Of a DNA stretch of 64,000 bases, positions 27,016-47,230 are shown piece by piece. Under the pieces are notes generated by a model that saw only the letters and a list, made by a program, of their open reading frames with translations, had not been told where the DNA came from and made no database searches. How positions within the stretch are numbered: position 1 is the stretch's first letter; each line of letters begins with the position of its first letter. The stretch is from Candidatus Saccharimonadales bacterium (GTDB taxonomy: Bacteria > Patescibacteriota > Saccharimonadia > Saccharimonadales > SZUA-47): the NCBI GenBank assembly GCA_041737385.1, contig JBGSRU010000002.1, positions 397,437 to 461,436 on the forward strand, in the 5' to 3' direction. The position numbers and the translations under genes were made by a program.

Positions 27016-27255
27016 ATCACCCATTTGGCAACAAACGGGTGACGCCCAAACTGCCAGCCGTACTCAAAAACATGACTAACCGGATTGTTCAGTTCTCTGT
27101 TGCTGCGGAACGAACCTGTCCTCAGAGAGGCCAGAACCGTTTTTGGCTTTTTCCGTTAGTTATTTGCCAAAAAACGTCCTCGCAAATGACTCAGTGAACA
27201 AAACAAACCAGTCAATCAGTTCTGTGAGTTTTTATGGCTGGGAGCTCAGCTACAA
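27016..27255 (-). repeat. mosaic intergenic repeat, copy R1 (left arm of inverted pair)
   Basis: It is the reverse complement of 27927-28153 at roughly 80% identity by eye. The terminal hairpin is at 27017-27042. Confidence 0.85.
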
Positions 27256-27318
27256 GCCCGATGGCATCAAGAAGCTACTGCTTTTACTTCGTTGCTCACT
27301 GGGATATACTTCTTTATT

Positions 27319-27897
27319 ATGAGCTTACCAACACTAATTGACCACAATAATGAAATCGGAATAGAAGCAGGTGACAGAAGACCATACTTAGAACGCTATG
27401 TTGAAGCAAAGAATATCGAGCTAGCTGAAAAATTTGCAGATGGGAGTGTGGCTGTACGTCACACATTATCACCTGAATTAGCTCGTTTAGCATTTACGTT
27501 CGTAAAAGCTACGTTTAGACTTATAGACATCCAACAGAGCAATAGAGATGATAATGCGGACAGAGTCAAAGCCCAACAAGCAGATGTTGATGTTTGGACC
27601 AGCCGAGTTGACGCGGTAACAACTGGTTACGTGGCGTTTCACGAAACAATTGACTATTTTACTAGAAAAGCTTCGGATGCAAGGCTAGAAGACGATGAGG
27701 AAACACGACATAAAATACTAGGGCTGCAAAACAGAGCTGGAGAAATAGTTGTAGAAGCAGAACCAGACAGTCCGCTTTCTTGGACTATCCCAGACGTAAA
27801 TCCACCAAATTCGGTATTTGATCTACCTAAAAGCAAACAAGAATGGCACGTCAGAGAACGACACGTTCCACCTTCAAGTACAGATTCTACTATATAA
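27319..27897 (+). CDS. hypothetical protein enclosed by the ~230-bp inverted repeats
   Basis: 193 aa from the ATG at 27319 (the ORF track starts at TTG 27292). It is acidic and helical in flavour, with no SD and no motif I recognise. Confidence 0.45.
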   Translation: MSLPTLIDHNNEIGIEAGDRRPYLERYVEAKNIELAEKFADGSVAVRHTLSPELARLAFTFVKATFRLIDIQQSNRDDNADRVKAQQADVDVWTSRVDAVTTGYVAFHETIDYFTRKASDARLEDDEETRHKILGLQNRAGEIVVEAEPDSPLSWTIPDVNPPNSVFDLPKSKQEWHVRERHVPPSSTDSTI

Positions 27898-27926
27898 TTT
27901 GTACTAGTGTTGCTGAATGTAGCTAT

Positions 27927-28153
27927 CCCAGCCATAAAAACTCTAAAACTGATTAATAAGCCTCTCCGAGTTACCGAGTAGTTTGCGAGGCTTATTTTTG
28001 TAAGTAACTAAGAAAACAACAAAAATCTGATTCGCCGGTACTCGGCGAGTATGCTTCGAAGCAACGGTAACTCTGGGAGAGCTTGTTAGTCATGTTTTAG
28101 AGTTCCGGCTGGCGGTTTTGGGCATCACCCGTTTTGCCGTCAAAATGGGTGAT
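27927..28153 (+). repeat. mosaic intergenic repeat, copy R2 (right arm of inverted pair)
   Basis: Blocks CTCTAAAACTGAT (27951-27963), TAACTAA (28005-28011), CTTGTTAGTCATGTTTT (28082-28098) and CCGGCTGGCGGTTTTGGG (28105-28122), plus a hairpin at 28125-28152. Confidence 0.85.
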
Positions 28154-28430
28154 AAATTAAACACACAAACTTATAAATCTATTAAGTTAAGGATGATTTG
28201 TCACCTTTAAACGGAACTAACAGCGAAAAATAAACATAAGCATAATTTAATAGTGCAATATTTGTCACATTTCCACAATATGTACAGAGGGAAGGGTATG
28301 TTTCGTAGTAATATCTACATACATTCTATATGCATAAATAGCTATAAGCTGGTAAAATAAGACTATAAGAAAACAAATGTTGACTTTTAAAAACTTTTGT
28401 TTTAAAATAGACTTATTATAGAAAGAGCAG

Positions 28431-29486
28431 GTGAGTATGGCAGAAGTAGCCGACGCTAGTGAACAGACACTGAACATTGAACAAGTTGTGGGCGATATTC
28501 TAAAGACTATTGATCGTGAAAGAGAACGCGAGATTATATCCCGTCGTTATGGATTATATGACCGTAAAGAGACTCTTGAACAGATAGGGGAGCTGCTAGG
28601 TATCACTCGTGAGCGCGTCCGCCAGCTAGAAAAAGCTGTTATGACCAAACTGAAGAGTGTTGCAGCGAAAGAGCTCCCTCACATCAGTGCTATCGAATCA
28701 GTATTGAGCAAGCACATCACTTCAATGGGTAATGTCGCGAGAGTCACTGACCTAACTGACAAAGTAGTTGCGAAGCCGTCAAAAATCGATCATTCAAGAG
28801 TTGCATTTCTTGCTCAGCTCGCCCCAGCGCTAACCCATGTCGGCGAAAATGACCACTTCCATAACGCCGTATCACTCAAGGAACTTCATTCTGAAAAAAC
28901 TGTTCGTGAAAACGTCGGTCACGTCATCGAAGCAATCAAGAAAATTGGCAAACCAGTATCTATTGAAGAGATCGCTGGCGCAATGGGCCACCCAGAAGCA
29001 AAATCTGTTGAGGCGCTTGCAACCGTCAGCAAAGACCTTGCAACACTAAACGGTCGATGGGGACTGATCAAGTGGCCAACCGTTAATCCTAAGAACATTC
29101 GAGACAAAATCTACGTTATACTTCATGAAAACGGCAAGCAAATGCACTTCGGTGAAATCGCTGAAGCAATCCGTGAATCTGACTTTAAACGAAAAGATGT
29201 CACCACTCAAGCTATCCACAACGAACTTATCAAAGACAAGCGATTTATCCTCGTTGGACGCGGCATCTATGCTCTAAAAGAGTGGGGCTTCAAACAGGGA
29301 ACAGTTGCTGACGTTATCACAGAAGTCCTTAAAGACGCTGCAGAGCCACTACACCGTGATGAAATCGTTAAACGAGTCCTAAAGCGCCGTTTTGTTAAAG
29401 AAACGACTATTCTACTCAACTTGCAAGGCAAACCACAGTTCAAACGAACTGCAAAAGCCACCTACACCCTCGCCGACAAGGAATAA
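28431..29486 (+). CDS. sigma-70 region-4-like HTH fused to HARE-HTH-like winged-helix repeats
   Basis: 'RRYGLYDRKETLEQIGELLGITRERVRQLEKAV' resembles sigma region 4. 'MHFGEIAEAI...LVGRGIYALKEWG' resembles HARE-HTH. Alternative ATG at 28437. Confidence 0.5.
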   Translation: MSMAEVADASEQTLNIEQVVGDILKTIDREREREIISRRYGLYDRKETLEQIGELLGITRERVRQLEKAVMTKLKSVAAKELPHISAIESVLSKHITSMGNVARVTDLTDKVVAKPSKIDHSRVAFLAQLAPALTHVGENDHFHNAVSLKELHSEKTVRENVGHVIEAIKKIGKPVSIEEIAGAMGHPEAKSVEALATVSKDLATLNGRWGLIKWPTVNPKNIRDKIYVILHENGKQMHFGEIAEAIRESDFKRKDVTTQAIHNELIKDKRFILVGRGIYALKEWGFKQGTVADVITEVLKDAAEPLHRDEIVKRVLKRRFVKETTILLNLQGKPQFKRTAKATYTLADKE

Positions 29487-29494
29487 AACTCTTT

Positions 29495-30163
29495 ATGTCC
29501 TCAATACCCCCTCAATTCACCGTCGAGGACGTCGAGGCGCTACATCCTCATGTTCCATTCGAACATGGTCCTGATACAGTCCTAGAATTCGCAGATATGT
29601 GGGATTTTAAAACAAGATTTGAGAACGGGCTTCCCGAATTTATAGATAGCGATAATGGGACAGTACAAGATTGGCGAAACAGACTAGATATAACGAGGCT
29701 CATACCGGCTAAATCAATACCTTTTAATGGAAGATTTGCTGATATTGAAGTTGTGCCAATAGAAGATCCACTGTCTATATTTGCAGCCACGGACGCTACA
29801 GTATTAGTAACGAATGGAGCAAAAGCTCATAGTGGCGAGATTGATCGGATAGTCGGTCTACCCGACACACTAAAATCACGCATCCTTGGATTTGATTTTT
29901 CAGGAAAAGCTTATTCTTCAGCTTCGAGCAGCAAATCAGAAATTACTACCATAAGAACACTACTAATGTATGTTCCCGTGTCGCCTAAGTTTGGCGTAAA
30001 ATCGATCAGTAAATATAGAGAGGATAGCTCAAGGTTTGGTTTAAGACGCTTTATGACGAAACCAACCGGCGATATTGATGCCATTACGGAACTATTAGAA
30101 AAATCAGCAGTACGAAGAATGAATCAACGATCAAGACAGGTGCCTGGTTCTGTTACCCAATAA
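29495..30163 (+). CDS. hypothetical protein
   Basis: 222-aa ORF starting 8 nt after the preceding stop, with no motif I recognise. Confidence 0.45.
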   Translation: MSSIPPQFTVEDVEALHPHVPFEHGPDTVLEFADMWDFKTRFENGLPEFIDSDNGTVQDWRNRLDITRLIPAKSIPFNGRFADIEVVPIEDPLSIFAATDATVLVTNGAKAHSGEIDRIVGLPDTLKSRILGFDFSGKAYSSASSSKSEITTIRTLLMYVPVSPKFGVKSISKYREDSSRFGLRRFMTKPTGDIDAITELLEKSAVRRMNQRSRQVPGSVTQ

Positions 30164-30381
30164 AGAGTTACATACAAAACTGAACGTTTTACGAACAATA
30201 CTAAGAATTATTATTTATACCTAAATATGTGAAAATAACGCTAATGTAGAAAAAAACAATAAAACTAGAGCGGAGCAGGTTAATAGAGGATTTTTTATAA
30301 AACATAAAAATATTTAGCAGAATTGAAGAAAAATTACTAGGCGAGAATAGCAGCAGAGGACAGAAAGCGAACATAGACATG

Positions 30382-30409
30382 ACGTCGCACAATGTATATT
30401 TTGCGACGT
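30382..30409. other. candidate dif (Xer recombination) site
   Basis: ACGTCGCACAA-TGTATA-TTTTGCGACGT. The two 11-nt arms are inverted repeats differing at 1 position, the 6-nt centre is identical to E. coli dif, and the whole site matches E. coli dif at 18 of 28 positions. Confidence 0.4.
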
Positions 30410-30589
30410 GCATATCTTATAAATAGTTGATTCCTTATACCACCCTAAATAGGGCACTTTTAAAGTAATGCCTGCTTTTCATAAAATTTTGATGTTACTG
30501 CCGTTGCTGCTACTTATTTCTAATCTTTATAGCTTCACCTATTAAACTTACAGGGCCAAGCAGTCGTAGTACTTTTTGCTACTTATAAG

Positions 30590-30598
30590 TTATCCACA
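30590..30598 (+). promoter_or_regulatory. perfect DnaA-box consensus 9-mer TTATCCACA
   Basis: Exact match in the 677-nt ORF-free gap. 8/9 variants lie at 30227-30235 (reverse) and 30622-30630. Confidence 0.25.
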
Positions 30599-30840
30599 CT
30601 TACATGCGTGAAATCACTTGCTTTTTCACGATTAAATATACTTGTATACTTTCTTCCCTGTTCACCCCTCCCTGCCGTTTGACAATATTTGACTTTTGTT
30701 TATTTATATATATAAGTATGTTTTTATATAATTTATGAACACTTTGCGAACTATAACAGGGTAAGAGCGGGTGAGCGGGCTTCCCTAACCAGCCAAAGAA
30801 ATATACGTCTCTTAAGCCTACTACTTATTTACGGAGGTCT

Positions 30841-31776
30841 TTATTTAATGAAAACTCTATCGTCGATTCTCACATCGATATACTCTTGAGGTAACTTCCC
30901 CTCGCCTGCTAGCTGTTCTATAGTCGCAGCGAGTGATCCTACTTGTAAGCGAGCATCTCGTTCAGGGGTTAGCTTTGCATATAAAGAGAGTCCATCAAAA
31001 CGAGCACGTATCTCTCTTTTCTGAACATCAAACTCAATGCTTTTTAGCTTTTTACGAAACTCCGTCGATCCATCAAACTCTGAAACAAGCAGCCCAACAA
31101 GCGTTGCTTCATCACTTGTAAGCAGTTGTGCACCTTGCGATATTGTTATATTAGGGAGAGATAACAATGGAAGACTTGCGAAAGATGAGTTTATTTTTTC
31201 TTGAGATTCTACCTGTAGCACCACACCACCCTTACTTAGAAGGGCTTCTTGGTTGCCGCCAGTATTGAGTCTTACTAGAGGGTCAACAAGACGTAAAGAA
31301 ACCTGCAATTTTCGGCCGGCTAGTGGAATAACCACTGAAGCTTGCTCTACTTCAGGAAAGGCTTCTTTTATCCGAGCCTCAAACTTTTCAGTGTTTACGC
31401 TAAACTTACTTTTATACAAAAAAGAACTACTGAAAATTTGATTAATTTGTTGATTATACGCTTCTTTTGATCTGTAGGATTTAGTTGTTTCGCTGTCAAA
31501 GCTTTTTATTCGTACCGTTGTCGATGATAGTGTCGTGTTAATAAGTATGACAAACCCAAGAGCGAACAAACCAAACCATTTTATAAAGATGTTTGAAGCA
31601 CGTTTTATGGTAATTCTATCTGAGTCTTTTTGGTTTTGTAGATTGGTTTTATCTTTCTTCCGCGTTTTGGCAGCGGTTGCGTTCGCCGGCCTATAGTAGC
31701 GCGCAATAGGTGCAGATTGCCTAGGTGGGAGACTTGCACGTCGGCCTTGCTCTTTTTTCTTGAAAAATTTTTTCAT
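30841..31776 (-). CDS. ftsQ: cell division protein FtsQ/DivIB-like
   Basis: Basic N-terminus, a single TM helix, a POTRA-like region, and a position directly after murG. Confidence 0.65.
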   Translation of the reverse strand: MKKFFKKKEQGRRASLPPRQSAPIARYYRPANATAAKTRKKDKTNLQNQKDSDRITIKRASNIFIKWFGLFALGFVILINTTLSSTTVRIKSFDSETTKSYRSKEAYNQQINQIFSSSFLYKSKFSVNTEKFEARIKEAFPEVEQASVVIPLAGRKLQVSLRLVDPLVRLNTGGNQEALLSKGGVVLQVESQEKINSSFASLPLLSLPNITISQGAQLLTSDEATLVGLLVSEFDGSTEFRKKLKSIEFDVQKREIRARFDGLSLYAKLTPERDARLQVGSLAATIEQLAGEGKLPQEYIDVRIDDRVFIK

Positions 31777-31785
31777 AAAACAGTA

Positions 31786-32976
31786 CTATAATCCAGAAGT
31801 ATTATTTTTAGTCTTGATGAGAATTTCTGCTATACGATCCGCTGCGTCTGTTGACGACATACGGTGAAGAGCTTTACGAAGCTCATCCTGACGAGCTAAA
31901 TTACCCAATAACTGTGTTGCTTCCACCATAAGACGTGTTTGAATATCTTTCTCAGCAACAACTATCGCAGATTTATTCTTGATGTATACTTCAGCATTTT
32001 TGAGTTGATGTCCTCCGGCAAGCAAAGGATTAGGAACAATAATACAAGCTGCTGCCTGCGCCGAAAGTTCAGCCATATTCGTCGCACCTGCTCTGGTTAT
32101 GATAACGTTTGCTGCCGCACTGTACGTATAAAGCTCGTTACTGAATGGTTCGAGAATCACGCGTTTCAAGCGCTCTGGTAATAGTTGCTTGTGATAGCTT
32201 TTTTGTACTTTATCGAACAACTTCTGACCTGTTATGTGTATGATGTGGACGCTTTCGTCGTTCAACAGCTCATTGCTCCCCTGCACCACCCTTTCGTTAA
32301 TATTTTGTGCACCCAGTCCTCCGCCAACTACTAATAACACTTTTGCCGTTTCAGGAAACGAAAGTTTACGTCTTGCGGCATTTCTGCTCTCGGGTGTTGC
32401 TAACTGGTACTCCGCGCGTACCGGCACACCTACTTTTACTGTTTTTTTACTATCATATTTGGGGGTGTAGAACTCTGGATCCATGGCGGTCGTGTGGACT
32501 GACGCTTTTTTTGCAATCAAACGGTGAGCCAAACTAACCATAGCATCCGAATCATGCGTTATGTATGGAATATGACGAAACCCTGCCGCTATACCAACTG
32601 GTGCGCAAACATAACCACCTTTCATGAAAATAACTTGAGGTTTAATACGTCCAAGCAGCACCCAAGATTCAATAATTCCAAGTATAAAGTATAGAAAATC
32701 TCGCACATTAAAAAATAACGTTTTTATATCCACTATTCGTTTAAAGTAGCTTTCTCCGTAGTAACGTCTAAACTTGCCTGCATGTACGGTTTTACGATCC
32801 GAGAAAGCATCGCTCCTTTTGATAATATCGTTTAAGCGGTCACCGTATTGACCGATGTGTATAATTGAAGCGTTTTCATCAAGTTTGTGCAGTGCTTCAG
32901 CAACGGGGATTAATGGTGTTAGGTGACCACCAGAGCCACCGCCAACAAAGACATAAACATTTTTTTTAGATGTCAT
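31786..32976 (-). CDS. murG: UDP-GlcNAc:lipid I GlcNAc transferase MurG
   Basis: 'VGGGSGGHLTPLIPVAEAL', 'VVGGGLGAQNIN' and its dcw-cluster context. Confidence 0.9.
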   Translation of the reverse strand: MTSKKNVYVFVGGGSGGHLTPLIPVAEALHKLDENASIIHIGQYGDRLNDIIKRSDAFSDRKTVHAGKFRRYYGESYFKRIVDIKTLFFNVRDFLYFILGIIESWVLLGRIKPQVIFMKGGYVCAPVGIAAGFRHIPYITHDSDAMVSLAHRLIAKKASVHTTAMDPEFYTPKYDSKKTVKVGVPVRAEYQLATPESRNAARRKLSFPETAKVLLVVGGGLGAQNINERVVQGSNELLNDESVHIIHITGQKLFDKVQKSYHKQLLPERLKRVILEPFSNELYTYSAAANVIITRAGATNMAELSAQAAACIIVPNPLLAGGHQLKNAEVYIKNKSAIVVAEKDIQTRLMVEATQLLGNLARQDELRKALHRMSSTDAADRIAEILIKTKNNTSGL

Positions 32977-34212
32977 CTAAATGTTCCTTCTGCTGTAACG
33001 AACCGGCTCATTTCTGCGGACTTCAGACTTTTTCTGAGCAATTGAGAGATCTGTGTAGCGTGAAACTTGGAAAACAATACCCATTGCGATCATAACAAAA
33101 ATAATGCTTGTTCCCCCGTAACTAACAAAAGGCAGTGTGATACCCTTTAAAGGTAATAAGCCGACCATCGCGCCGATGTTAATCATCATTTGAACACTTA
33201 GCCACACTAGTATCCCCGTAACAAGCAACCTCATGTAATCTGTAGGAGCGGCTTTTGCGATAGCTGCTATGCGAGTGAACAATAACCAAAAAATAACCAG
33301 CACGCCGATTGAGCCAACGAACCCAAACTTCTCTGCTACAATCGCAAAAATTGAATCATTAGCAGGCTCCGGTAGATACCCGTAAGCTTGTACGCTTCGC
33401 CCTAAACCTTTCCCGAACATGCCACCTGATCCAATAGTAATAAGTGCTTGGCAAGCTTGGTATCCTTCTGCTTGGCAGTCGGCCGTTGGATTGAAAAACG
33501 TAGCGATGCGGTCTCGTCTATAAGGAGTGCTTATCACTGCAATGCTTGCAAGTGATAGAACGACAACACCAACAATTGCTAGTTTTTTCATTGGAAGACC
33601 AGCGGTAAACGCCATCAACCCAACAACTGCCATCATGACTGCAGCTGAGCCCAGATCACTTTGCAGGCCGGCAACCATGACGATGATTATTCCGATTAGG
33701 CCGCCCAACCACTTTAAACTGTCATCGGACTGAAGCTTGTCATCAAGCCTTTTTTTCGTCAAAAAATATGCCAGCCATAAAATAATCGCTAGCTTTAAAA
33801 GTTCAGCAGCTTGAAAAGAAAAACCGCCCACTTGAATCCAACGGTGAGCACCATTGATTTCTTCACCTATGAAGCGAACCATAACACCAATAACAAGTGC
33901 TGCGATGATGATTGGTGTTTGTAGTTTTCGCCACTGTTCTATTCGTAGTGAGCCAGCAATAGCAAAACCAATAATACCAAGTCCAATTGCTATTAACTGT
34001 TTGTTGCTGAAATAGTTTTCTGGAAGATTAGTGCCGTTTGTTAGGCCGGGGCCGATCGCATAAACGACTACTGCACCAATCACGAGTAAAAGCGTCATTA
34101 AAATCAGCAATACATAGTCAGGTCGGTGGCGTCTAGATGATGTAGTCTGGTTCGATTGATTATCACGAGGACTACGGCGCCGAGCTGAGAGTCTTGCGCC
34201 GCCATATCTCAC
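32977..34212 (-). CDS. ftsW: SEDS family peptidoglycan glycosyltransferase FtsW
   Basis: Polytopic, with 'LPEPANDSIFA' and 'GLLPLKGITLPFVSYGGTS'. I prefer the GTG at 34212, which overlaps the mraY stop as GTGA, over the ATG at 34305. Confidence 0.85.
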   Translation of the reverse strand: MRYGGARLSARRRSPRDNQSNQTTSSRRHRPDYVLLILMTLLLVIGAVVVYAIGPGLTNGTNLPENYFSNKQLIAIGLGIIGFAIAGSLRIEQWRKLQTPIIIAALVIGVMVRFIGEEINGAHRWIQVGGFSFQAAELLKLAIILWLAYFLTKKRLDDKLQSDDSLKWLGGLIGIIIVMVAGLQSDLGSAAVMMAVVGLMAFTAGLPMKKLAIVGVVVLSLASIAVISTPYRRDRIATFFNPTADCQAEGYQACQALITIGSGGMFGKGLGRSVQAYGYLPEPANDSIFAIVAEKFGFVGSIGVLVIFWLLFTRIAAIAKAAPTDYMRLLVTGILVWLSVQMMINIGAMVGLLPLKGITLPFVSYGGTSIIFVMIAMGIVFQVSRYTDLSIAQKKSEVRRNEPVRYSRRNI

Positions 34213-35249: not shown

Positions 35250-35313
35250 GTATTTCTTTCTGTGTAGCTAAGTCTTATTACTTTAAGACTTCTAACCTCT
35301 GTTAATTGTATCA

Positions 35314-37440: not shown

Positions 37441-37474
37441 ATTATTTTGTTTTTATTTTTCTTTTGTGGTTTTT

Positions 37475-37512
37475 GAGAGTGAAAGGTAAACACAAATCGA
37501 CCTTTCACTCTC
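37475..37512. other. perfect 13-bp hairpin in the rsmH-ftsL spacer
   Basis: GAGAGTGAAAGGT (37475-37487) pairs with ACCTTTCACTCTC (37500-37512) across a 12-nt loop. There is no U tract on the operon (-) strand. Confidence 0.5.
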
Positions 37513-37671
37513 TTTTAAACCGTTGGACGCTTCTACTAAGCGCTGTCAGTCAAAGTTTTTTGCTTTTCCTCTAATAAAGTGAGTTAAGCGACTCTGACTT
37601 TTACTTTGTAGGAGCGTGAGCTTGTTTTTACCTGAATTGGCATATTACTAGCCCTGCCCTTCTTTTTATTT

Positions 37672-38589: not shown

Positions 38590-38864
38590 CTAATCAGCAG
38601 CCAACTTTTTATTTTTATACGTTTTTGTTTTTGTTTAGTTTAAACGATGCGAATTTAGGAAGGTTTTTTTTTGAGAAATTTAAAAAATTTCTATATAAGC
38701 TTCCTTCTCATCTTGTTTAAACTTAAGTTGAGAGACTTATGTGTGAGGTGGAGTTTTGGGAGGTGTTTTATGACTCTTGAACAGAGTCGAATGTACGAAG
38801 GTTTTTTAGAGTGTTCCTTATAATCACTTGTTGACTGCCAAATAGGTAAGTTTAAAAACTAACT

Positions 38865-38887
38865 GAGACACCCCTTCGGGGTTTCTC
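38865..38887 (-). terminator. hairpin, possible attenuator/terminator between mraZ and rsmH
   Basis: On the - strand: GAGAAACCCC-GAAG-GGGGTGTCTC with 1 mismatch, followed by AGTTAGTTTTT. Confidence 0.3.
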
Positions 38888-39067
38888 GTCGCGTAAGGGA
38901 CAGTGAAATAAATTCCCTGTTCCGACTGCTCTTCCCGATGCAAAAGCTGCAAGCTTTATCACATTCGAGTAAGATCATTTTTAAATGTTTCTTATTTGGT
39001 CTTTTTTGGTAGCCCTTGCTGGCAACTACATTTGTTAATGTACGTTATATAATTCTCAATTGATTAG

Positions 39068-39591: not shown

Positions 39592-39612
39592 TTCTCTACT
39601 GAACATACTCAC

Positions 39613-39621
39613 TTATCCACA
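39613..39621 (+). promoter_or_regulatory. perfect DnaA-box consensus 9-mer TTATCCACA
   Basis: Exact match upstream of mraZ. It overlaps the GTGG-box series, so it may simply be another box. Confidence 0.2.
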
Positions 39622-39699
39622 GAAATAAAAATACCCACTACCTGTGGTGTGGGTAAGTTCAGTAGCTACGCTATTATAGCTTTGATACTCTTATTCGCC

Positions 39700-40176
39700 C
39701 TAAGGCTTAGGTACAAGAGTAGGTAAAGGAGTCACCGCAGAACCGGCTTCTGAAATGCGCTCTGCGTTTGGTGCATCAAACATTACAAAATCTTCACCAG
39801 GGATAATTGATGTAAATCTGTTAGGATTTTTACCATTAAGCTCGGCGACGCGTCTTAATTCTCTGTTCACAGCTCCTGAAGGAATCTCAGCGCTAGGATC
39901 TGCTTCAGCTGTTCGAAGCTCGGCTTCAACAAGACCATAAGGTGTATCACCCTCTTCAACCGTCACTACAGTTGTAGCAGGTGCTCTTTCAGCTGGTTCT
40001 TCTGAATCTCCACCAATAATTGCATTTCCAACTAGTAAACTGCCTGCAGCTAAACCAGCAACAATCATTGCTTTTCTTGCACGAGATAGGTGATCAGGTG
40101 TTAATGTTGGATCTGTGTTGGTAGTGTTACCGGGGGTACCGTGTTGTTTTGTTCTAAGTGGTGCATTTTTTGACAT
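39700..40176 (-). CDS. membrane-anchored LysM-like protein (tentative)
   Basis: A single TM helix ('MIVAGLAAGSLLVGNAIIG') followed by 'VVTVEEGDTPYGLV...VAELNGKNPN...IIPGEDFVMF', which resembles LysM. Confidence 0.3.
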   Translation of the reverse strand: MSKNAPLRTKQHGTPGNTTNTDPTLTPDHLSRARKAMIVAGLAAGSLLVGNAIIGGDSEEPAERAPATTVVTVEEGDTPYGLVEAELRTAEADPSAEIPSGAVNRELRRVAELNGKNPNRFTSIIPGEDFVMFDAPNAERISEAGSAVTPLPTLVPKP

Positions 40177-40241
40177 AGCTTGTATTATACTACACGCTTA
40201 TGGTTTTGTCAATATATTATGCAACTTTTAGCGTATATATA

Positions 40242-41543
40242 TTATTTATGACTTAATTCAGCAATTCGCTCAGCATAATACTTAGCAGACGGTCTCACCG
40301 TTCGTTTCATCGTCTCTCTATCTACGTGCACTAAACCAAACTCCGGGAACCAACCATACGCCCATTCAAAGTTATCAAGGAGGCTCCAGTGGTAGTAACC
40401 TTTGAGCTCAATTCCTTCAGATAACGCACGCTCCATCGCGATTATCGTCTCTTCTATCCACCATTTACGCTGTTTGTCGTCAGCATCTGCTAAGCCGTTC
40501 TCAGTGATGATTATAGGTTTATTATAGTGTGCGTAGACTCTCACCAAAAGCGGATAGATTCCTTCTGGCTCCATATACCAGCCAAGATCACTCTTTGGCA
40601 GACCTGGGTTATCCTGATGGAACAACGTGTTTTTACGGCCTTTGTACTGCCTGAACGAATAATAATCAGTAAAGTAGTAGTTGAAGCCAACATAATCTTG
40701 ATATCTTTTGATTCGGTTCAAGAACCACCAGTTCCAAAAATAGCGCATCCACCTAACGGCGAGGTTATCCCAGAAATTCTGCGGGCGTTTTGCCTGTATG
40801 TTTGCTAATTGGGCTGCAACGCCAATTTGTAGGCTCTTTTTATGCTTTTTAAGGATTTTATATGAGCGCTTATGTGCAACTGATAGGTTGTAATATACCG
40901 TTATAAAAGAGAACCAGCTTTTTTTATTGGGTGGCCATTCCCCCGTTGCGTAGCCGAAGCTAGAATAGACGTTTGGTTCGTTCAGTGTGATGATGTACTT
41001 CAGCTTGTTTATAGGGAGCTCTTTACAGACTTTTGCGACAAAACGCTCAAAATACTTTATATTTGAGCGTTTTTCAAAGCCTCCCTTCTCAGTAAACCAG
41101 ACCGGCATTGTCCAGTGCCACAAGTTCAGCATCGGAACAATGTCTCGAGATAATAACTCTTCAATATATTCCTTGTAGTGAGCGAACGCCTCTGCATTCC
41201 ATACACCTTCTTCTGGTTCAAGTCGCGACCATTCTATTCCGAACCTGAAAGCGTTCAAATTCAGCTTCTCGGCGATATCAAAGTCGTGTTTGTAGTTTTC
41301 GTAGTGCCTTATACCTACTCCTGATAAGTAATTTTCAGGTGTCTCCGCTTGCGACTTAAACTTATCCCACTCTGGAAGCCAGTTTAACCGTTTATCTGCA
41401 GTTGCAGCTAATTCGCGCGCGTTTTCAAGTTCCCACACCGTCCATTGATTATAAGTGTTGCCTTCTACTTGATGCGAAGCGGTACTAGCGCCCCACATAA
41501 AATCCTTCGGGAATACGTTTTGTTCATTTATTTTTTTTGTCAT
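40242..41543 (-). CDS. glycoside hydrolase family 1 beta-glucosidase
   Basis: 'FMWGASTASHQVEG', the acid/base 'TLNEPNVY' and the nucleophile 'IIITENGLAD'. I place the start at M39 (41543) because the upstream extension lies inside a repeat copy. Confidence 0.9.
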   Translation of the reverse strand: MTKKINEQNVFPKDFMWGASTASHQVEGNTYNQWTVWELENARELAATADKRLNWLPEWDKFKSQAETPENYLSGVGIRHYENYKHDFDIAEKLNLNAFRFGIEWSRLEPEEGVWNAEAFAHYKEYIEELLSRDIVPMLNLWHWTMPVWFTEKGGFEKRSNIKYFERFVAKVCKELPINKLKYIITLNEPNVYSSFGYATGEWPPNKKSWFSFITVYYNLSVAHKRSYKILKKHKKSLQIGVAAQLANIQAKRPQNFWDNLAVRWMRYFWNWWFLNRIKRYQDYVGFNYYFTDYYSFRQYKGRKNTLFHQDNPGLPKSDLGWYMEPEGIYPLLVRVYAHYNKPIIITENGLADADDKQRKWWIEETIIAMERALSEGIELKGYYHWSLLDNFEWAYGWFPEFGLVHVDRETMKRTVRPSAKYYAERIAELSHK

Positions 41544-41584
41544 TATGTAGAGTTTACCAGAAATTATAGAAATTGTGGCTTTGC

Positions 41585-41750
41585 GCGCCACACCTCGCCA
41601 TACTTTTACCTGCAGGTGCAAAAGTATGCAAAACCCCCGCACCCGGCCGAAAAACATGATTGAAACAAGATACCAGACAGGCTTGCGCAGCGAGGACGCA
41701 AGCGACCTTCGGCTTATCTTCAGCTATTTGCCTTAGGTTGGCTCACTGCT
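41585..41750 (-). repeat. mosaic intergenic repeat, copy R3a (truncated)
   Basis: The reverse complement of 41585-41700 aligns with 47060-47170 of R4. Shared features are CTGGTAT..TTTCA.TCA.GTTT, GGGTGCGGGG(G)TTTT, and the hairpin TACTTTT..AAAAGTA at 41601-41626. Confidence 0.8.
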
Positions 41751-42072
41751 TGACTCAAGCCAGACTGATTTGCTTCATCAGTTTTTCAGAGGGTGAAAGG
41801 TTCAATCATGGATTGAAGCCCGTAGCTCCTGTAGCCCAATCCAGCATAAAACGCGAGAAACCAATGAAACAACTGCAAAACAAGTCGAGTCAATTGTGAG
41901 GACCAGGCAAAAGTACTTAATGGTAGAATCTACTTTTGCCCGACCAAAGGGAGTTCCGCAACAACGACCTGTTTTGCAGTTGTTTCAATTGTGTTTGTTG
42001 CGTCCGGGTGGTGGTTTTTGCCTCTCGTTTTTGGCAGCAAAAATGAGAGCCTTCTGTCGCACGGATGCGACA
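41751..42072 (+). repeat. mosaic intergenic repeat, copy R3b
   Basis: ACTGAT (41764-41769), a 10-bp stem (41906-41915 with 41931-41940), CGACCAAAGGGAGT, GTTCCGCAACAAC (41953-41965), TCCGGGTGGTGGTTTTTGC (42003-42021), and a hairpin at 42022-42049 with loop GGCAGC. Confidence 0.8.
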
Positions 42073-42091
42073 TCTTACTAATAAGTAGTCA

Positions 42092-42703
42092 TTATTTCTT
42101 AGATTTGGTTTGAGGTTTTTTCTTAGAATATCCTCTGTAAGCGAGCTCTTTACGTAACTCGTCTATACGAACGATGAAACTCTCAAACGGCTTCAATAGC
42201 GTCGAATAGCGCCAGTTCGGTGACATGATGTGTAATAATTTATTTCTATCCCTCAGATACTCAATCAATGAATAAAAATCACCATCACCAGAGACAATAA
42301 TTGCCTTAGAGTAATTAGGTAATTCTTTCATAGCGTACAGGACAAGATCAGTATCTATGTTGCCTTTTGTTGGGGGCTTTTCTTTATCGTCATCTTTTTC
42401 TTCAGCATTTGGATCGGCAAACATTTCTAACGTCGGTTTCAACGCGACAAGATAGCCTGCTTCTTGCATCTGTTTATAGAGGTCTTCGTTCTCCGGTAAA
42501 TAGCCAATAAACATGAAGGCTTTTTCAACGTTGTACTTCTCTTGCAGATAGATGCGAAACTTCTTCCAGTCGAGCTTCCACCCTGCCCGCTGCACACCTA
42601 GGTTCAGGTTCTGACTATCTATAAAAGCATAGTTACCTTTTGGTGCTTGCTGTTTCGGTTTACGGAACGGGAATAGCCGTTTTTTGTTTTGGTTTGTTGC
42701 CAT
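42092..42703 (-). CDS. NYN (LabA/DUF88-like) domain putative RNase
   Basis: 'YAFIDSQNLNLGVQRAGWKLDWKKFRIYL' and 'IIVSGDGDFYSLIEYL' are typical of NYN/LabA-like proteins. Confidence 0.7.
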   Translation of the reverse strand: MATNQNKKRLFPFRKPKQQAPKGNYAFIDSQNLNLGVQRAGWKLDWKKFRIYLQEKYNVEKAFMFIGYLPENEDLYKQMQEAGYLVALKPTLEMFADPNAEEKDDDKEKPPTKGNIDTDLVLYAMKELPNYSKAIIVSGDGDFYSLIEYLRDRNKLLHIMSPNWRYSTLLKPFESFIVRIDELRKELAYRGYSKKKPQTKSKK

Positions 42704-42779
42704 AACAGTATCATAGCAGGTTATGAATTATATATCCCGCTCATGGTTAAAAGTATATTATATTGTATAATAACAAAAT

Positions 42780-43841
42780 ATGAGAGCATCTGCAAATCCG
42801 GAAGCAAGAAAGCTAAGTTTCGACCATCAGCCTACTGGCTTTACTGACGTGTCTTTTGCGTTAGGTGGAGTAAACCACGATATCCGTAGGTTAACTACTG
42901 GTGTTGTTGCGGTCTCTGGTGACTGTCCAACTATACAAGATATAGCAGATTCTTTAAGAGAGTTAGGAGCCGACCAACTACATGAAGTTACACACTCATT
43001 AATCCGGAATCACGTAGAACATACTCCTCCCGAAGTTATAGACTTTGAAAGATACGAAGAAACTGACACAGTTTGCATAACAAGGCTTACTGGTCTTTCA
43101 GTCGCAATTGGAGGTGTCATGTTGGAAGAGTTGGGAGGCATAAATACTGTTGGAGGTCTACAGTCCTTAGTCGGAGGCTTTAAACTTGTTAATAATAAGG
43201 GAGAACGAGTTTTTCCTGGTCCAGGTCTTAGATATTTGATATATGACAGATTCATTAGTGAGGGTGGGTCTTTTCAGGGCAGCAAGTTAGCACCAAAATT
43301 TGTAAAAATAGGATCAACAAGAGACGCCTTAAGGGGCCAACTAGATCAATTAGTCGATCAAGGCTACGTTACAGAAGGACCAAAAAAAGGAACGAGCCCT
43401 ATTACGTATACCTTAGATCCAGCTAAAAGGCCATTTATTCGTGATTATGTAAGTATCGTAAAATCTTTCATATCCAGTCATGATAGATGTATCGACGGTA
43501 TAGATACAATTGAAGGATATCTCGATCCAGAAGATGATAGATCATACGGTGTACCTTACGACGTCAGAAACGCTATGCATAATTCGCCTAAAAGAAATGC
43601 TCCGTTGTCACAAGCGCTCAATGAATATCTACTAAATTTAAGGGCGGAAGGCACAACCGAAGTGAGTACAGCCACACTTGCAGAAAAATACGGCTATACA
43701 ACGAAAAGAATGTATGATCTCCTAAAATACATGTCTACTAGCCCAGATTTTAACGTAAGAAGAGTTGGTGAAAGAGGGAGAAATAGTAAAGGTCAAGGAG
43801 TTAGTGCAAAATGGTCAATATTCTCTTGCTTGGATGAATAG
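42780..43841 (+). CDS. hypothetical protein with winged-helix-like segments
   Basis: 353 aa. 'LRGQLDQLVDQGYVTEGPKKGTSPITYTL' and 'ATLAEKYGYTTKRMYDLLKYM...' look wHTH-like. I recognise no catalytic motif. Confidence 0.4.
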   Translation: MRASANPEARKLSFDHQPTGFTDVSFALGGVNHDIRRLTTGVVAVSGDCPTIQDIADSLRELGADQLHEVTHSLIRNHVEHTPPEVIDFERYEETDTVCITRLTGLSVAIGGVMLEELGGINTVGGLQSLVGGFKLVNNKGERVFPGPGLRYLIYDRFISEGGSFQGSKLAPKFVKIGSTRDALRGQLDQLVDQGYVTEGPKKGTSPITYTLDPAKRPFIRDYVSIVKSFISSHDRCIDGIDTIEGYLDPEDDRSYGVPYDVRNAMHNSPKRNAPLSQALNEYLLNLRAEGTTEVSTATLAEKYGYTTKRMYDLLKYMSTSPDFNVRRVGERGRNSKGQGVSAKWSIFSCLDE

Positions 43842-44408
43842 CAGAAAACTATTTATATAACTTAATATTTGCGGGAATTCTTTGAACTTTTCGCTTTTTT
43901 CTAGATTGAAATGCCCGCTATTTGGAATAACCACCGGTTCCCCATCTGTTTTTTCAGCGAGATATTCAGCGTGAGATAGTGGACAGTATGGATCATCGTC
44001 AGAATGTATGAATAGGCGCTCGTTGCTGTTTTGTTTAATCTTTTCAAAATCAAAGTCAATGTCAAAGAATCGATCGTTAGCATGGAAGTCTAACTCTTCA
44101 TGAAGATAGACTAGATCTTTGTATGCACCAACCGAGATTGTCTTGTCTACCCCTTTAGATAGCTGAGCTACGACGAGGACCGCAACAGCACCAGATGAAT
44201 GACCTATCAGCACCGTTTCTGCATTAATTTCGAAGGGCGTGTTTTCGAATATATAGTTTGTCCATTCCCTCAAGCTTGGCATATCTGAACTTGGGAGGTC
44301 AGGCACCCAAACAGCGTATCCCCTCTCTTCTAGCGAGTTTTTTAGCCACTGAAACCAGTTTCCGCTGGAGTCACTTTGTGTTCCGTGCAATATAATTGCG
44401 CTCTTCAT
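43815..44408 (-). CDS. alpha/beta serine hydrolase (YdeN/RBBP9-like)
   Basis: 'ILHGTQSDSSGNWFQWL' and the nucleophile elbow 'LIGHSSGA'. Its 3' end overlaps the convergent gene by 27 nt. Confidence 0.55.
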   Translation of the reverse strand: MKSAIILHGTQSDSSGNWFQWLKNSLEERGYAVWVPDLPSSDMPSLREWTNYIFENTPFEINAETVLIGHSSGAVAVLVVAQLSKGVDKTISVGAYKDLVYLHEELDFHANDRFFDIDFDFEKIKQNSNERLFIHSDDDPYCPLSHAEYLAEKTDGEPVVIPNSGHFNLEKSEKFKEFPQILSYINSFLLFIQAREY

Positions 44409-44485
44409 ACTTACATTCTAGCAGTTACAAATACAAAAGCTCAGATCCACCTCCGAACCTGAGCTTTTAAAAGAGTTTCTATTAT

Positions 44486-44581
44486 CTATACTGCTGCAAA
44501 GATGACGAGCATGAACGTCATAACTGCCGTACCTAGACCTACTGCTACAATTTTTGGTATTTCCCAAACTGCTTTGTCCAT
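44486..44581 (-). CDS. 31-aa single-TM micro-ORF (speculative)
   Basis: MDKAVWEIPKIVAVGLGTAVMTFMLVIFAAV. AGGAG lies 8 nt upstream of the ATG. It falls below the ORF-track size cutoff. Confidence 0.25.
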   Translation of the reverse strand: MDKAVWEIPKIVAVGLGTAVMTFMLVIFAAV

Positions 44582-44701
44582 CTCTCGTCTCCTGTTTAGT
44601 ACTTATATAGTACGTGCATCTGCTTTTTATTACTGTAATAATAGACAACATATCTATGTGCACTTCCCCACTCCCCTGCCGTGCGATATGTCACTAAATT
44701 G

Positions 44702-45280
44702 CTAAGAAAGTCGCTTTGGTCTGATTACAGTAAGGTATGCCAAAGCTCCGTTAAACATAACTAAATATATTGGGAATGCATACGCTGCGAACGTCCAATC
44801 ATCAATGATTAATAATATAGATCCCTGAGCTACTGTCCATACAACAAAAGATCGTCCGTTTTCACTGTTCGGCTTCTTATATGCTTTTATAAATGTTGGT
44901 AATGCTGCTGAGACGTCCGCTACGATACTGAAAACTATCGCTAGATTTGGGTTATCAGTTATCAACCAAAGTAATAATCCAACTAAAGCTATAAGCCCAA
45001 ACCAATAGTCACGCTTTTCAGTTTTCCAATATGCTTTTGGGTTAACGTAAGATGCCGCAAATATTAACACTACATTGAAAAGCCCCGCACCAACACCAGC
45101 GGTCGCCCATCCTGCGCCACCATCCAGTGCAGCAAAAAAAGCAATCCCTGTAAACATCGTCAGCAAACCCCATGTCATTCTGTTTGGCTTAGTCTCGCCT
45201 TTAAGTGTGGCAATTATGTAGCTCAAACCGCCTAAAAGACTAAGCACTACTGCTACAATTGCGAAATATTCTGGTAACAT
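44702..45280 (-). CDS. PQ-loop/SWEET-superfamily-like 6-7 TM membrane protein (paralog 1)
   Basis: It is an internal duplication of 3-TM halves. 'LSYIIATLKGETKPNRMTW' and 'LPTFIKAYKKPNSEN' resemble PQ-loop motifs. It is homologous to 47717-48319. Confidence 0.4.
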   Translation of the reverse strand: MLPEYFAIVAVVLSLLGGLSYIIATLKGETKPNRMTWGLLTMFTGIAFFAALDGGAGWATAGVGAGLFNVVLIFAASYVNPKAYWKTEKRDYWFGLIALVGLLLWLITDNPNLAIVFSIVADVSAALPTFIKAYKKPNSENGRSFVVWTVAQGSILLIIDDWTFAAYAFPIYLVMFNGALAYLTVIRPKRLS

Positions 45281-45283
45281 GAT

Positions 45284-46084
45284 TTAATTTACATTCCGTC
45301 CTGAAGCTATATATCTTTTCAAGTCATACTGTAGCACTTCTGGCCCAAACGTAGTAGTAAAGTCAGGGCCTAAGCTAAGTAAACTGCGGACATGACTTGC
45401 GAGCACCTGATCTGCAAACCCAGCCAATCTATCAATGGATTCTTCTGCTAACTCTGCTACTCCGGCTATTCTATCGTCTTGCAATAACCTACTAAGTATA
45501 TCTCCGTATTCTGTTGGCTGTTGCATGATTAATCCACCTGAAACACCGATTGAATATTCAATACTGTTAGTAATTCCCATATGCCAAGAGTCGGTTTTAT
45601 TCCTAATAAACACATTGTATGGGTGATTATCATCTTCGTCTCTGTCATAAGAAGCTGCAACTTTCGCACGAGCTGATTTAGTCATAGACATATTGCCATA
45701 GCCTGGGTGAACCTGTTCAACTGGATCTGGCTCAAGTGCTGCTTCAAAATGCTCGGATGCAGAATGTATTGCAACAAAGCCATCGACGTTGGACACAGCT
45801 ATATATCCATTGCAACGGATAACAGAGTTACCATCTGTTCCTTGATAGATTCTGTGGTGCGAGCCTTCGCCTACTCCGATTCTAGCAATGACATCATTGG
45901 TTGGTTGCCCGAGTCTATCAAACTCGCTGTTTAGTAAATCAACCATCCCGACGTCATGAAGAGGATACATGCTAGTCATACTTTCTACTTCTCCTAAAGC
46001 ACGATTAACTTGATCTGATTCTTTCGACATTACAGCGTCGTGTAGTCTTGACATTGATCCGTTTAGTGCTTCAATACTTTTCAT
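45284..46084 (-). CDS. hypothetical protein
   Basis: 266-aa ORF ending 3 nt upstream of the membrane gene start, with no motif I recognise. Confidence 0.45.
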   Translation of the reverse strand: MKSIEALNGSMSRLHDAVMSKESDQVNRALGEVESMTSMYPLHDVGMVDLLNSEFDRLGQPTNDVIARIGVGEGSHHRIYQGTDGNSVIRCNGYIAVSNVDGFVAIHSASEHFEAALEPDPVEQVHPGYGNMSMTKSARAKVAASYDRDEDDNHPYNVFIRNKTDSWHMGITNSIEYSIGVSGGLIMQQPTEYGDILSRLLQDDRIAGVAELAEESIDRLAGFADQVLASHVRSLLSLGPDFTTTFGPEVLQYDLKRYIASGRNVN

Positions 46085-46153
46085 AAGAATTTTCTCCTTG
46101 TTATGTTTGCTATTTTGACAGAATATTTTATATATGTTAAACTGTTCACCATA

Positions 46154-46930
46154 ATGAACAACAAAGAAACACTTTTAACTCAATTAAAGAAGTTAGGTTT
46201 GTCCGTCGATGAAGGCAAAATATATTTAGAACTTTTGAAAGAGCCAAATTCTCATCTAGAGTTAGCTAGGATAACTGGAGTAAATCGTACTAAGGTATAC
46301 CGAATTGCTGAAGAGCTACAGAAAAAAAGTCTAATAACTACCCGAACTGATGATAGAGGTACGTTTCTTATCGCAACTGACCCTTCTACCCTAGACGTCG
46401 AAATAGCCGAAAAGGAAGAAAAACTATCAAATCAAAGAGAAATATTCGCCAACATACTTCCAGAGCTAAATAAACTGCAGGCAGAAGGCCATAATGTTCC
46501 TGGCTACTTTGAAGTCAATACCTATGAGGGTGTCGATGGTATGAAACAAATGCTTTGGCACGAGCTAAAAACAAAGGGTGAAATGCTCGGGTTCGGTTCT
46601 GGGACGATCGCAGACTTAGTCGATAGTGAACGTCTTGCAGAGAGACATCGTGCAATGACTGTTAGTGCGGGATATAAAGTAAGGGAAATAATAAATCCCG
46701 GCAAAAAGCGTGAAGATTTTACAAAAAATGATGATTTCAAACAGATTTTTAATAAAAAAGTCATTCCTGAAGAAGATTTACTCTTAGAACAACAAATAAT
46801 CATTTATAACGATACTGTTGCTGTGTATAGCTGGCGCAATAATCAGCGTGTTGGGTACGAAGTAATAAATAAAGCATATAACACCATGTGGCGAAACATC
46901 TTTGAACATTATTGGCGTCTAGCTAAATAA
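46154..46930 (+). CDS. TrmB-family transcriptional regulator (paralog 1)
   Basis: N-terminal wHTH 'LKKLGLSVDEGKIYLELLKEPNSHLELARITGVNRTKVYRIAEEL'. I place the start at the ATG at 46154. Confidence 0.65.
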   Translation: MNNKETLLTQLKKLGLSVDEGKIYLELLKEPNSHLELARITGVNRTKVYRIAEELQKKSLITTRTDDRGTFLIATDPSTLDVEIAEKEEKLSNQREIFANILPELNKLQAEGHNVPGYFEVNTYEGVDGMKQMLWHELKTKGEMLGFGSGTIADLVDSERLAERHRAMTVSAGYKVREIINPGKKREDFTKNDDFKQIFNKKVIPEEDLLLEQQIIIYNDTVAVYSWRNNQRVGYEVINKAYNTMWRNIFEHYWRLAK

Positions 46931-46936
46931 ATAGTC

Positions 46937-47230
46937 GTAGCTCCTCCACCCTCTAAAGAACTGATGATAAGAATCAGCTTCTTCTGAGTAGAGCAACAAG
47001 ACTAATCTCCGAATACATAACTAAAGAACTATGAGGGGCGACCAAAGGGAGTCCTTGGTTGCGCAGAAGGAGCTGGTATTTCTTTTCAGTCACGTTTCTT
47101 TAGTGGGGTGCGGGGTTTTCGCTTACTTTTGCACCTGTAGGTAAAAGTAAGGCTGGGTATAGGCAGGCAGCTCCCATGATTTATTTTTTGGCAGCAAAAA
47201 TGAGAGTCGACCTTCGCTAGAATGCGACAA
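46937..47230 (+). repeat. mosaic intergenic repeat, copy R4 (longest, with duplicated E+F module)
   Basis: CTCTAAAGAACTGAT (46951-46965), TAACTAA (47018-47024), CGACCAAAGGGAGT, GGGGTGCGGGGTTTTCGC (47105-47122), hairpin 1 at 47124-47149, and hairpin 2 at 47179-47206 with loop GGCAGC. Confidence 0.85.

Follow-up and report, generated by a model that had tools for sequence, protein, structure and literature searches.

Background

The closest described counterparts of the element reported here are the ERIC (IRU) elements of Enterobacteriaceae and the Correia elements (CREE) of Neisseria, intergenic imperfect palindromes of 100–160 bp that are co-transcribed and form long RNA hairpins. Both affect mRNA stability or processing, which for Correia involves RNase III, and both vary in presence at orthologous sites. 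Saccharibacteria (TM7), in common with other bacteria of the Candidate Phyla Radiation (CPR), have very small, gene-dense genomes. Here we describe a family of structured intergenic repeats of about 220 nucleotides (nt), held to one fold and gained and lost between relatives, in a 64,000-nt chromosome segment (the window; 42% GC) of a Candidatus Saccharimonadales bacterium (GenBank assembly GCA_041737385.1, contig JBGSRU010000002.1, positions 397,437 to 461,436, forward strand). The genes of the window include dprA, topA, a sigma-like regulator, the dcw cluster (mraZ to murG), a GH1 glycosidase, an NYN-domain protein and TrmB-like regulators. An earlier note on this DNA had reported an unrecognised intergenic repeat family of at least five copies, and its claims are followed up below.

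Five full units and a fragment lie within 20 kb

The window carries five full units and one 3' fragment of the family within 20 kb (Table 1). All are intergenic and diverged from one another, and a full unit is 205–245 nt long. The five segments of the earlier note are homologous by blastn-short, nhmmer and a covariance model, which recovered all units at E-values of 1e-30 to 1e-41. Searches with blastn-short linked R1 to R2 (50 nt at 88% and 18 nt at 100% identity), R3a to R4 (44 nt at 91%) and R3b to R4 (22 nt at 100%), and a repeat search returned an inverted repeat of 53 nt at 87% (I1) and a direct repeat of 45 nt at 82% (D13). An nhmmer profile of six units from which R3a had been left out recovered R3a at E=3e-19. 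As this match covers nearly the whole length of the unit, R3a is longer than had been thought, and its boundary with R3b lies near 41810 instead of at 41750.

Table 1 Units of the repeat family and features directly associated with them. Positions refer to the window; z values are against dinucleotide shuffles unless marked as coming from the sliding scan of minimum free energy (MFE).
Feature	Position	Strand	Hairpin F	Covariance model	MFE and z	Remarks
R1	27011-27253	-	27015-27044	158 bits, E 5e-36	-98 kcal/mol	full rod and hairpin F; rod-shaped fold
192-aa open reading frame (ORF)	27319-27897	+				between R1 and R2; no Pfam match; function not assigned
R2	27916-28158	+	28124-28153	150 bits, E 4.5e-34	-106.8 kcal/mol; z=-10.3	full rod and hairpin F
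R3a	41592-41808	-	41599-41628	157 bits	z=-3.5	near full length, without GTAGCT leader
Palindrome TTCAATC-ATG-GATTGAA	41801-41817					perfect; at the junction of the R3a and R3b 5' ends; read from sequence
R3b	41819-42054	+	42020-42051	135 bits, E 2e-30	MFE-scan z=-5.3	full rod and hairpin F
R4	46934-47158	+	47122-47151	172 bits, E 3e-39		full rod and hairpin F
R3b-type 3' fragment	47160-47230	+				3' half of hairpin F and the small hairpin that follows; rod missing

The conserved blocks appear in order in a multiple alignment, and blocks B, D and E lie where the earlier note had placed them. Block A is also present, but in R2 it occupies 27941-27953 and not 27951-27963. R4 had been described as carrying two modules of block E plus hairpin F; its modular make-up is real, but the second module is the 3' fragment of a unit of the R3b type, which forms a direct repeat with 42028-42072 (45 nt at 82%, 22 nt at 100%). 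A possible sixth, degenerate copy at 23205-23290 was not found by nhmmer, even with --max at E<=100, and this position falls inside a different conserved non-coding stretch that is described under the neighbouring features.

Pairwise identity between units is only 53–70%, indicating that the copies are old paralogues and not assembly duplicates. Over 20,579 nt, a region that takes in R1, R2 and the ORF between them, the window agrees letter for letter with a separate Logan assembly (run SRR28170464); this run may also underlie the window's own assembly. Block E and the hairpin after it do resemble the 3' half of ordinary terminators, which would fit a chance similarity among terminator hairpins. 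Homology over the whole unit at E-values of 1e-19 to 1e-41 between diverged copies, the occurrence of the same architecture in three lineages and the identical Logan assembly exclude this, and an artefact of assembly, for all practical purposes.

Every unit has the same predicted fold

The architecture of the family was read by folding each unit on its family-sense strand. The same fold was obtained in every unit, at -76 to -107 kcal/mol: a long imperfect hairpin, here called the rod, followed by a small hairpin, F. The rod comprises a basal duplex of about 55–60 bp and a branched tip. Blocks A and D/E, presented in the earlier note as independent, are by folding the two strands of one long helix. 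5' of the rod lies a leader that carries stop codons and is usually (G/C)TAGCT (six of seven units, five of them with GTAGCT), 8–12 nt from the foot of the helix. P1, the base of the rod, is GC-rich (CCAGCC/GGCTGG in R1 and R2, CACCC/GGGTG in R3a and R4). Inward of P1 there follow an internal loop, a variable helix (P2a), a nearly invariant helix AAAAC-UGAU / AUCA-u-GUUUU with a bulged U and, beyond it, about 30 more pairs; the branched tip contains the conserved words GAGUCA, UUGCGAGGAC and GUUCCGCAGCAAC. In R3b the arms 41860-41887 and 41965-41992 are 89% complementary. The second, inner hairpin that the earlier note had drawn as TCGCCG/CGGCGA in R2 and CTGGCCT/AGGACAG in R1 is present in both.

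Directly 3' of P1 is a U-run, (G)GUUUU(G), of three to five U in all units, and then hairpin F, which consists of four to six variable outer pairs, a pivot pair and UUUU/AAAA. The pivot is G.U in R1, R2 and R3b, as had been noted for this stem position, and in a unit from another lineage (locus L010, below), and is C-G in R3a, R4 and the unit of locus L083. In the sliding MFE scan, R2 and R3b were the most structured places of the whole window.

No Rfam family accounts for this fold, in agreement with the earlier note. With Rfam 15 and its gathering thresholds the window as a whole had no matches, and at E<=5 the region 22500-48000 returned three unrelated weak matches, none of them on a unit. 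A tRNA/tmRNA scan gave nothing. 6S RNA is a rod of about 180 nt with a large central bubble, present in single or double copy; it was rejected for the units, which number five in 20 kb, have a basal duplex of about 55 bp with no central bubble and gave no Rfam 6S match. Hammerhead (CUGAUGA), box C/D and K-turn readings of ACUGAUGA were rejected as well, this sequence being confined to one subfamily, without the partner motifs and unmatched in Rfam. The idea that region D-E-F encodes a conserved small peptide was discarded on the ground that the reading frames differ between R1 and R2.

Pairing is maintained by compensatory changes

Helices P1, P2 and F of eight units, three of them from the two other Saccharibacteria lineages described below, were aligned by hand from duplex views (alignment A4), with N for gaps and constant dummy spacers to hold the columns in place under MAFFT. 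Standard pairs are formed in 98.3% of the 234 cells, and 17 of the 32 pairs change on both sides. The covariation score was 0.56 against 0.18 in shuffles, and none of 500 shuffles reached any of the measures. When the 3' partners were slid by one to three columns as a control, pairing fell to 37–46%. Within P1, four units have C-G and four have A-U at column 2, and at column 4 three have G-C and four have C-G. The stems of hairpin F had been said to keep pairing while their sequence changes, and this was borne out: the stems TCACCC/GGGTGA, CTCTC/GAGAG, CATA/TATG and CTTA/TAAG are present, and six different outer stems (TCACCC, CUCUC, GUUCC, CAUA, CUUA and GCUAU) each have their exact complement. 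On alignment A4, the compensatory pairing proposed in the earlier note is therefore strong.

One strand of the element is favoured

The earlier observation that the G.U pair belongs to one strand extends to all units. Over seven independent units together, there are 61 G.U pairs and two A.C 1x1 mismatches in the sense-strand folds, and 31 and 13 in those of the antisense strand. In all seven the sense fold has the lower energy, by 5–20 kcal/mol (19 kcal/mol in R1), on either chromosome strand, R1 and R3a lying on the strand opposite to R2, R3b and R4. Because the sense fold wins whichever chromosome strand carries the unit, selection acts on one folded strand, most likely RNA and, less likely, single-stranded DNA.

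One-strand folding with G.T wobbles would also suit a mobile element whose folded form is single-stranded DNA, processed by an HUH/Y1 enzyme, like REPIN-RAYT systems or the PATE-like derivatives of IS200/IS605, or by an integron-type recombinase acting on attC-like sites. The GTAG(CT) conserved before the hairpin foot in five of seven units recalls the GTAG signature of REP elements, the head-to-head pairs recall REPIN doublets, and structure is kept better than sequence, as in attC sites. However, the unit is five to ten times as long as a REP and longer than the usual attC (57–141 bp), its 3' end has no CTAC mirror, R''/R' boxes (RYYYAAC/GTTRRRY) are absent, and the window showed neither a Y1 transposase nor an integrase. 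GTAGCT is moreover only mildly enriched in the window at large (46 observed against 32.7 +/- 6.2), and TAG serves as a stop codon in two units, so that conservation of GTAGCT has another explanation. We regard this reading as very unlikely. An integron attC site proper, which the earlier note had not recognised in the sequence either, was rejected in the same way: the units exceed 200 nt, the helix ends in AAAAC-TGAT / ATCAtGTTTT with no GTTRRRY boxes, and the window contains no integrase.

Units in other Saccharibacteria

Members of the family beyond the window, which the earlier note had missed along with the single rod and hairpin of each unit and the insertion/deletion polymorphism, were sought with a regular-expression and hairpin scan of Saccharibacteria loci followed by nhmmer. 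Full units were found in two further lineages. One is represented by loci L083 and L084 (GCA_017993025.1 and a Joint Genome Institute metagenome), with a sigma-like protein 87% identical to that of the window; the other by locus L010, where RsmH shares only 52% identity with its counterpart in the window. The best match of the window's own RsmH among species-representative genomes is 70% identical, and its close matches are all metagenome-assembled genomes of Saccharibacteria. R3a is 70–72% identical to the L083/L084 units, which come from another species, and R4 is 66–69% identical to R3a and to the L083 unit. As R3a and R4 are as near to the L083 unit (69–72%) as to each other, the subfamilies are either older than these species or move between them.

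The covariance model found no further unit in 619 kb plus 47 kb of Saccharibacteria loci, mostly of the same syntenic region, or in the rest of the window. Since about 600 kb of other Saccharibacteria DNA gave no further unit, the five copies in 20 kb represent a local expansion. One match of the model, in locus L008 (E 0.38), was rejected as it is not a rod. A metagenome scan for the pattern TCATGTTTN{6,9}SGGSTGSNGGN{0,2}TTTT gave 54 matches, all of them chance by nhmmer and folding; the same pattern had two matches in viral contigs, neither of which was confirmed by nhmmer (E<=10) or the covariance model. R2 had no blastn match in phage genomes. Full-text literature searches on Saccharibacteria or Patescibacteria together with MITEs (miniature inverted-repeat transposable elements), repeats, or structured or non-coding RNA turned up nothing relevant.

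Units are gained and lost at orthologous sites

Two of the sites occupied in the window could be compared with relatives. The spacer between topA and the sigma-like gene is 1443 bp in the window and 200–557 bp in eight relative loci (L082, L083, L085, L086, L087, L150, L151 and L153), whose sigma-like proteins are 84–91% identical. The conserved promoter and leader of the sigma-like gene can be aligned between the window and these relatives, and the extra ~1.23 kb of the window (26994 to about 28225) consists of R1, the 192-aa ORF and R2, which the eight relatives do not have at this site. The spacer between the NYN and GH1 genes is 547 bp in the window, where it holds R3b and R3a, and in six relative loci it is 52–117 bp or is occupied by a DUF1761 gene. 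Conversely, the L083 unit lies with a 408-aa ORF between der and pth, two genes that are direct neighbours in the window. The absence of R1-ORF-R2 and of R3a/R3b from the orthologous sites of relatives shows that units are gained and lost, and it is partly shown that they come and go singly, as head-to-head pairs or with a cargo ORF.

In a word-indexed search of 5.8 billion proteins the only match of the 192-aa ORF at E<=0.001 was itself, and a full HMMER scan gave nine remote unnamed homologues at 32–44% identity; its AlphaFold2 model has low confidence (pLDDT 42). A promoter-like site, TTTACT-16-TATACT (27283-27310), lies just upstream of it. The 408-aa ORF of L083 (2403-3629, minus strand), inserted with a unit, has no Pfam match even at E<=10. 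A TnpB/omega-RNA reading of the L083 unit was rejected, as this adjoining upstream ORF shows no CxxC zinc-finger motif in addition to the lack of a Pfam match. R1-ORF-R2 (1152 nt with an ORF of ~200 aa) was also considered as an Obelisk or viroid-like molecule and rejected: the middle 660 nt fold at -154.3 against -152.5 +/- 7.6 for shuffles, and the other units carry no ORF.

The spacer between topA and the sigma-like gene has received other sequences in relatives. It contains a 110-nt AT-rich hairpin with perfect arms in L083 (9690-9820) and L085, and about 350 nt including CTAGAGC/CTAGCGC tandem repeats in L150 (780-1200). These unrelated insertions in two relatives point to the spacer as an insertion hot spot.

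Such polymorphism raises the question of a DNA-level MITE, that is, a derivative of an insertion sequence that cannot move by itself, with the rod as terminal inverted repeats for a transposase encoded elsewhere and the RNA fold as an incidental consequence. The rod arms do form an imperfect inverted repeat of ~45–55 bp in every unit, and the size, lack of coding capacity, intergenic location and presence or absence at orthologous sites all fit. On the other hand, the bias of 61:2 against 31:13 for G.U over A.C on one strand is unexpected for repeats read as double-stranded DNA, and conservation and covariation reach the inner rod and hairpin F, outside the inverted repeat. No target-site duplication was seen at the borders of R1-ORF-R2 or R3a/R3b, the two sites with an empty-site comparison. 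The motif TGTAGCTA does stand on both sides of the L083 unit, but in R2 it forms the 5' leader of the element itself. No transposase, integrase, reverse transcriptase or Cas-like protein came up when about 40 ORFs of the window were scanned against Pfam. The paralogues are also old, at 53–70% identity, with no near-identical copies among them. A MITE is therefore considered unlikely.

Units abut the stop codons of upstream genes

R2 starts 22 nt past the stop codon of the 192-aa ORF, and R4 starts 7 nt past that of a TrmB-like gene. In L083 and L010 the leader TAG is itself the stop codon of the upstream ORF (AAA GCC CTG TAG-CTA and ATT TAC TCC TAG-CTG, respectively). The three solitary units, R2 and R3a have the orientation of the gene upstream of them. 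R1 and R3b are the antisense partners of two head-to-head pairs: R1 and R2 enclose an ORF, and between the 5' ends of R3a and R3b there are only ~10 nt. The 3' end of R1 is 22 nt from the topA stop codon (26993), and that of R3b, which is followed by a small hairpin at 42056-42071, is ~20 nt from the stop codon of the NYN gene. Next to R3a, and a short way upstream of the GH1 promoter, is an extra conserved hairpin (41574-41592) that the L083 unit has as well. R3a is not the leader of GH1, since that gene is preceded by a conserved TGnTAnAAT box of its own right after R3a. The neighbours of units are topA, the sigma-like gene, NYN, GH1, the TrmB-like gene, the ORFan, the 408-aa protein and mraZ, none of which is nuclease- or recombinase-like. 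ORFs next to different units have no similarity to one another, so no shared partner protein was seen.

Canonical intrinsic terminators elsewhere in the window end in GGTGGTGGTTTT, and block E is much like them. Because real terminators end like block E, P1 with its U-run has the look of a terminator with the 190-nt rod in place of its loop. A terminator scan of the units flagged only the small hairpin after R3a and GCGGGGTTTTCGC in R4; intrinsic terminators have loops of 3–8 nt.

The reading that we favour, with about even confidence, is that the family is an RNA-level structured intergenic repeat at gene 3' ends, of the same kind as ERIC, Correia, REP and BOX elements, probably acting as a terminator or 3'-end structure. 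Units placed immediately past a stop codon would be co-transcribed with the upstream gene, and the GC-rich base of the rod with its U-run would then form an oversized intrinsic terminator. The rod and hairpin F could in this way end or insulate transcription and shield the 3' end of the mRNA, and the ~55-bp duplex would be a natural substrate for RNase III. The predicted action is that proposed for ERIC, Correia, REP/BIME and BOX elements. What is shown is the existence of the family, its structure, covariation and strand asymmetry, its polymorphism between relatives and its place at stop codons; transcription of the units, their activity as terminators or stabilisers and their mobility are what we infer.

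Several points weigh against this 3'-end reading. A purely 3'-untranslated-region role does not explain R1 and R3b, two of the seven units, since both face against local transcription. The U-run after the rod is short (3–5 U) and hairpin F is followed by none, so that neither is a textbook terminator. Alignment A4 was derived from predicted folds, which biases its pairing counts upward; automatic alignments are noisier, supporting the basal helix and blurring F, and there are only seven independent sequences. The strand asymmetry alone cannot separate RNA from single-stranded DNA, as G.T pairs also stabilise the latter. Mobility is deduced from presence and absence only, with no target-site duplication, transposase or recent near-identical copies found.

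The units might instead be stand-alone small RNA genes with promoters of their own that act in trans, as regulatory siblings or as guide or scaffold RNAs of the omega-RNA or bridge-RNA type. Sequence and structure are kept across distant Saccharibacteria, the strand asymmetry fits RNA, and the 3' flanks differ among units, as a guide segment would. A weak promoter-like site that could serve R1 (TGGTCA-17-CATAAT, nine of twelve positions) is present at 27344-27316 on the minus strand. Against this, there is no conserved promoter before the units, and no sigma-70-like promoter at all was found before R3a, R3b or R4. The 5' ends of R3a and R3b leave only ~10 nt between them, and the leaders of two units share bases with the stop codon of the ORF before them. 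TnpB, IscB, IS110 or Cas-like proteins were not found beside any unit or among the ~40 window ORFs scanned. Independent small RNA genes are accordingly an improbable alternative.

A bolder variant is a rod-shaped functional RNA specific to Saccharibacteria that spreads itself, either by copying through an RNA or single-stranded intermediate with no protein partner encoded nearby, or as trans-acting decoys or guides resembling double-stranded RNA. We consider it distinctly unlikely; if true, it would explain why sequence and structure are kept across genera while positions turn over, and also the cargo ORF within a head-to-head pair.

Neighbouring features of the window

Several other features were recorded in the course of the analysis. 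The stretch that contains the supposed sixth copy is a non-coding sequence of ~700 nt (22976-23669, minus strand) upstream of dprA and divergent from it, with its own TTGACA-17-TATAAT promoter. It is orthologous at the same position in three relatives (L083 5485-6390, L086 5841-6543 and L082 1-355) and includes long runs that are invariant across them, such as CGTTGTTACCCTCCACGCC and AGGCCTTCAAGGTGGGTTGAAGGGTGT. Internal modules of the form CACCCTCT..AG ... GCGGTGC plus a hairpin vary in number by species. Only words of 8–12 nt are shared with the repeat family, and Rfam gave no match. Because its downstream genes differ between relatives, the stretch looks like a stand-alone large non-coding RNA, different from the repeat family and probably more interesting.

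About 190 nt upstream of the sigma-like/HARE-HTH gene (28240-28436; L082 3700-3908, L083 and L086) are highly conserved and contain a near-consensus TTGACT-17-TAAAAT promoter inside an inverted repeat, AAAACAA..GTTGAC TTTTAAAAAC TTTTGTTTT, a possible operator or leader. Upstream of GH1 in the window (41544-41575) and at the GH1 starts of four relatives (within L142-L146), the TGnTAnAAT box lies ~10 nt before the ATG, and in the promoter of the 192-aa ORFan TATACT similarly ends 8 nt before the ATG. These promoter boxes adjoining the ATG suggest leaderless or very short-leader mRNAs in the lineage.

Convergent with R4, overlapping ORFs of 76 and 85 aa (47250-47689, minus strand) read as the N- and C-terminal parts of one protein, of which the N-terminal part is pyridoxamine-phosphate-oxidase-like by eye; the pair is probably a frameshifted pseudogene. 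A 316-aa ORF with no Pfam match (10803-11753, minus strand) contains tandem repeats of 66/72 nt and 24 nt (D1-D5, 10805-11294) and would encode a repeat-rich protein. In the dcw cluster, the gaps between the ftsL-like gene and rsmH (37441-37671) and between rsmH and mraZ (38590-39067; both on the minus strand) are unusually long and fold more stably than the background of the MFE scan, at z of about -2.4 to -3.4, with no Rfam match.

Comparison with known systems

Structured interspersed intergenic palindromes are as a kind of element well known in other bacteria; what is new is the architecture, the host group and how deep conservation of the RNA type reaches. An element of 220 nt that is held by covariation across genera and comes and goes between genes, at times with an ORF, would be notable, and the mechanism that mobilises it, if any, is not one of the obvious ones. 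The family would offer a handle on how transcription units end and are insulated in these organisms, a marker of genome plasticity in hard-to-culture episymbionts and a clean new RNA motif for catalogues of the Rfam type.

With attC sites the units share a structure better conserved than sequence, one-strand folding, conserved bulged bases and flanking ORFs that recall cassettes, but they have no R/L boxes or integrase, fall outside the length range and are not arrayed in one orientation. The likeness to intrinsic terminators lies in the GC-rich P1 followed by a U-run, the position right after stop codons and the resemblance of block E to a terminator's 3' half. Unlike terminators, the units have a 190-nt rod in place of the loop, a U-run of only 3–5 nt, a second conserved hairpin and sequence conservation at the level of a family.

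REP/BIME elements and REPINs are likewise intergenic palindromes with GTAG near the hairpin foot and inverted doublets, and REPs serve as stabilisers of mRNA 3' ends or as terminators. REPs, however, measure 20–40 nt; the GTAG of the units lacks a CTAC mirror, the window yielded no RAYT, and the inverted pairs, compared with REPINs, are whole 220-nt units set head to head, once with an ORF between them. The BOX elements of Streptococcus pneumoniae are modular mosaics of boxA, boxB and boxC with a stable predicted RNA, and R4 with its adjoining fragment presents a comparable shuffling of modules. The sequences are unrelated, and BOX modules of 45–60 nt occur in varying number whereas the core unit here is constant.

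ERIC and Correia elements resemble the family in being long imperfect intergenic hairpins that are present or absent at orthologous sites. They share no sequence similarity with the units, which are longer (205–245 nt), have a branched tip and, outside the palindrome, a further hairpin on the 3' side, show no evident TA target duplication or IHF site, and are old copies at 53–70% identity instead of numerous and similar ones, in a CPR host with a reduced genome.

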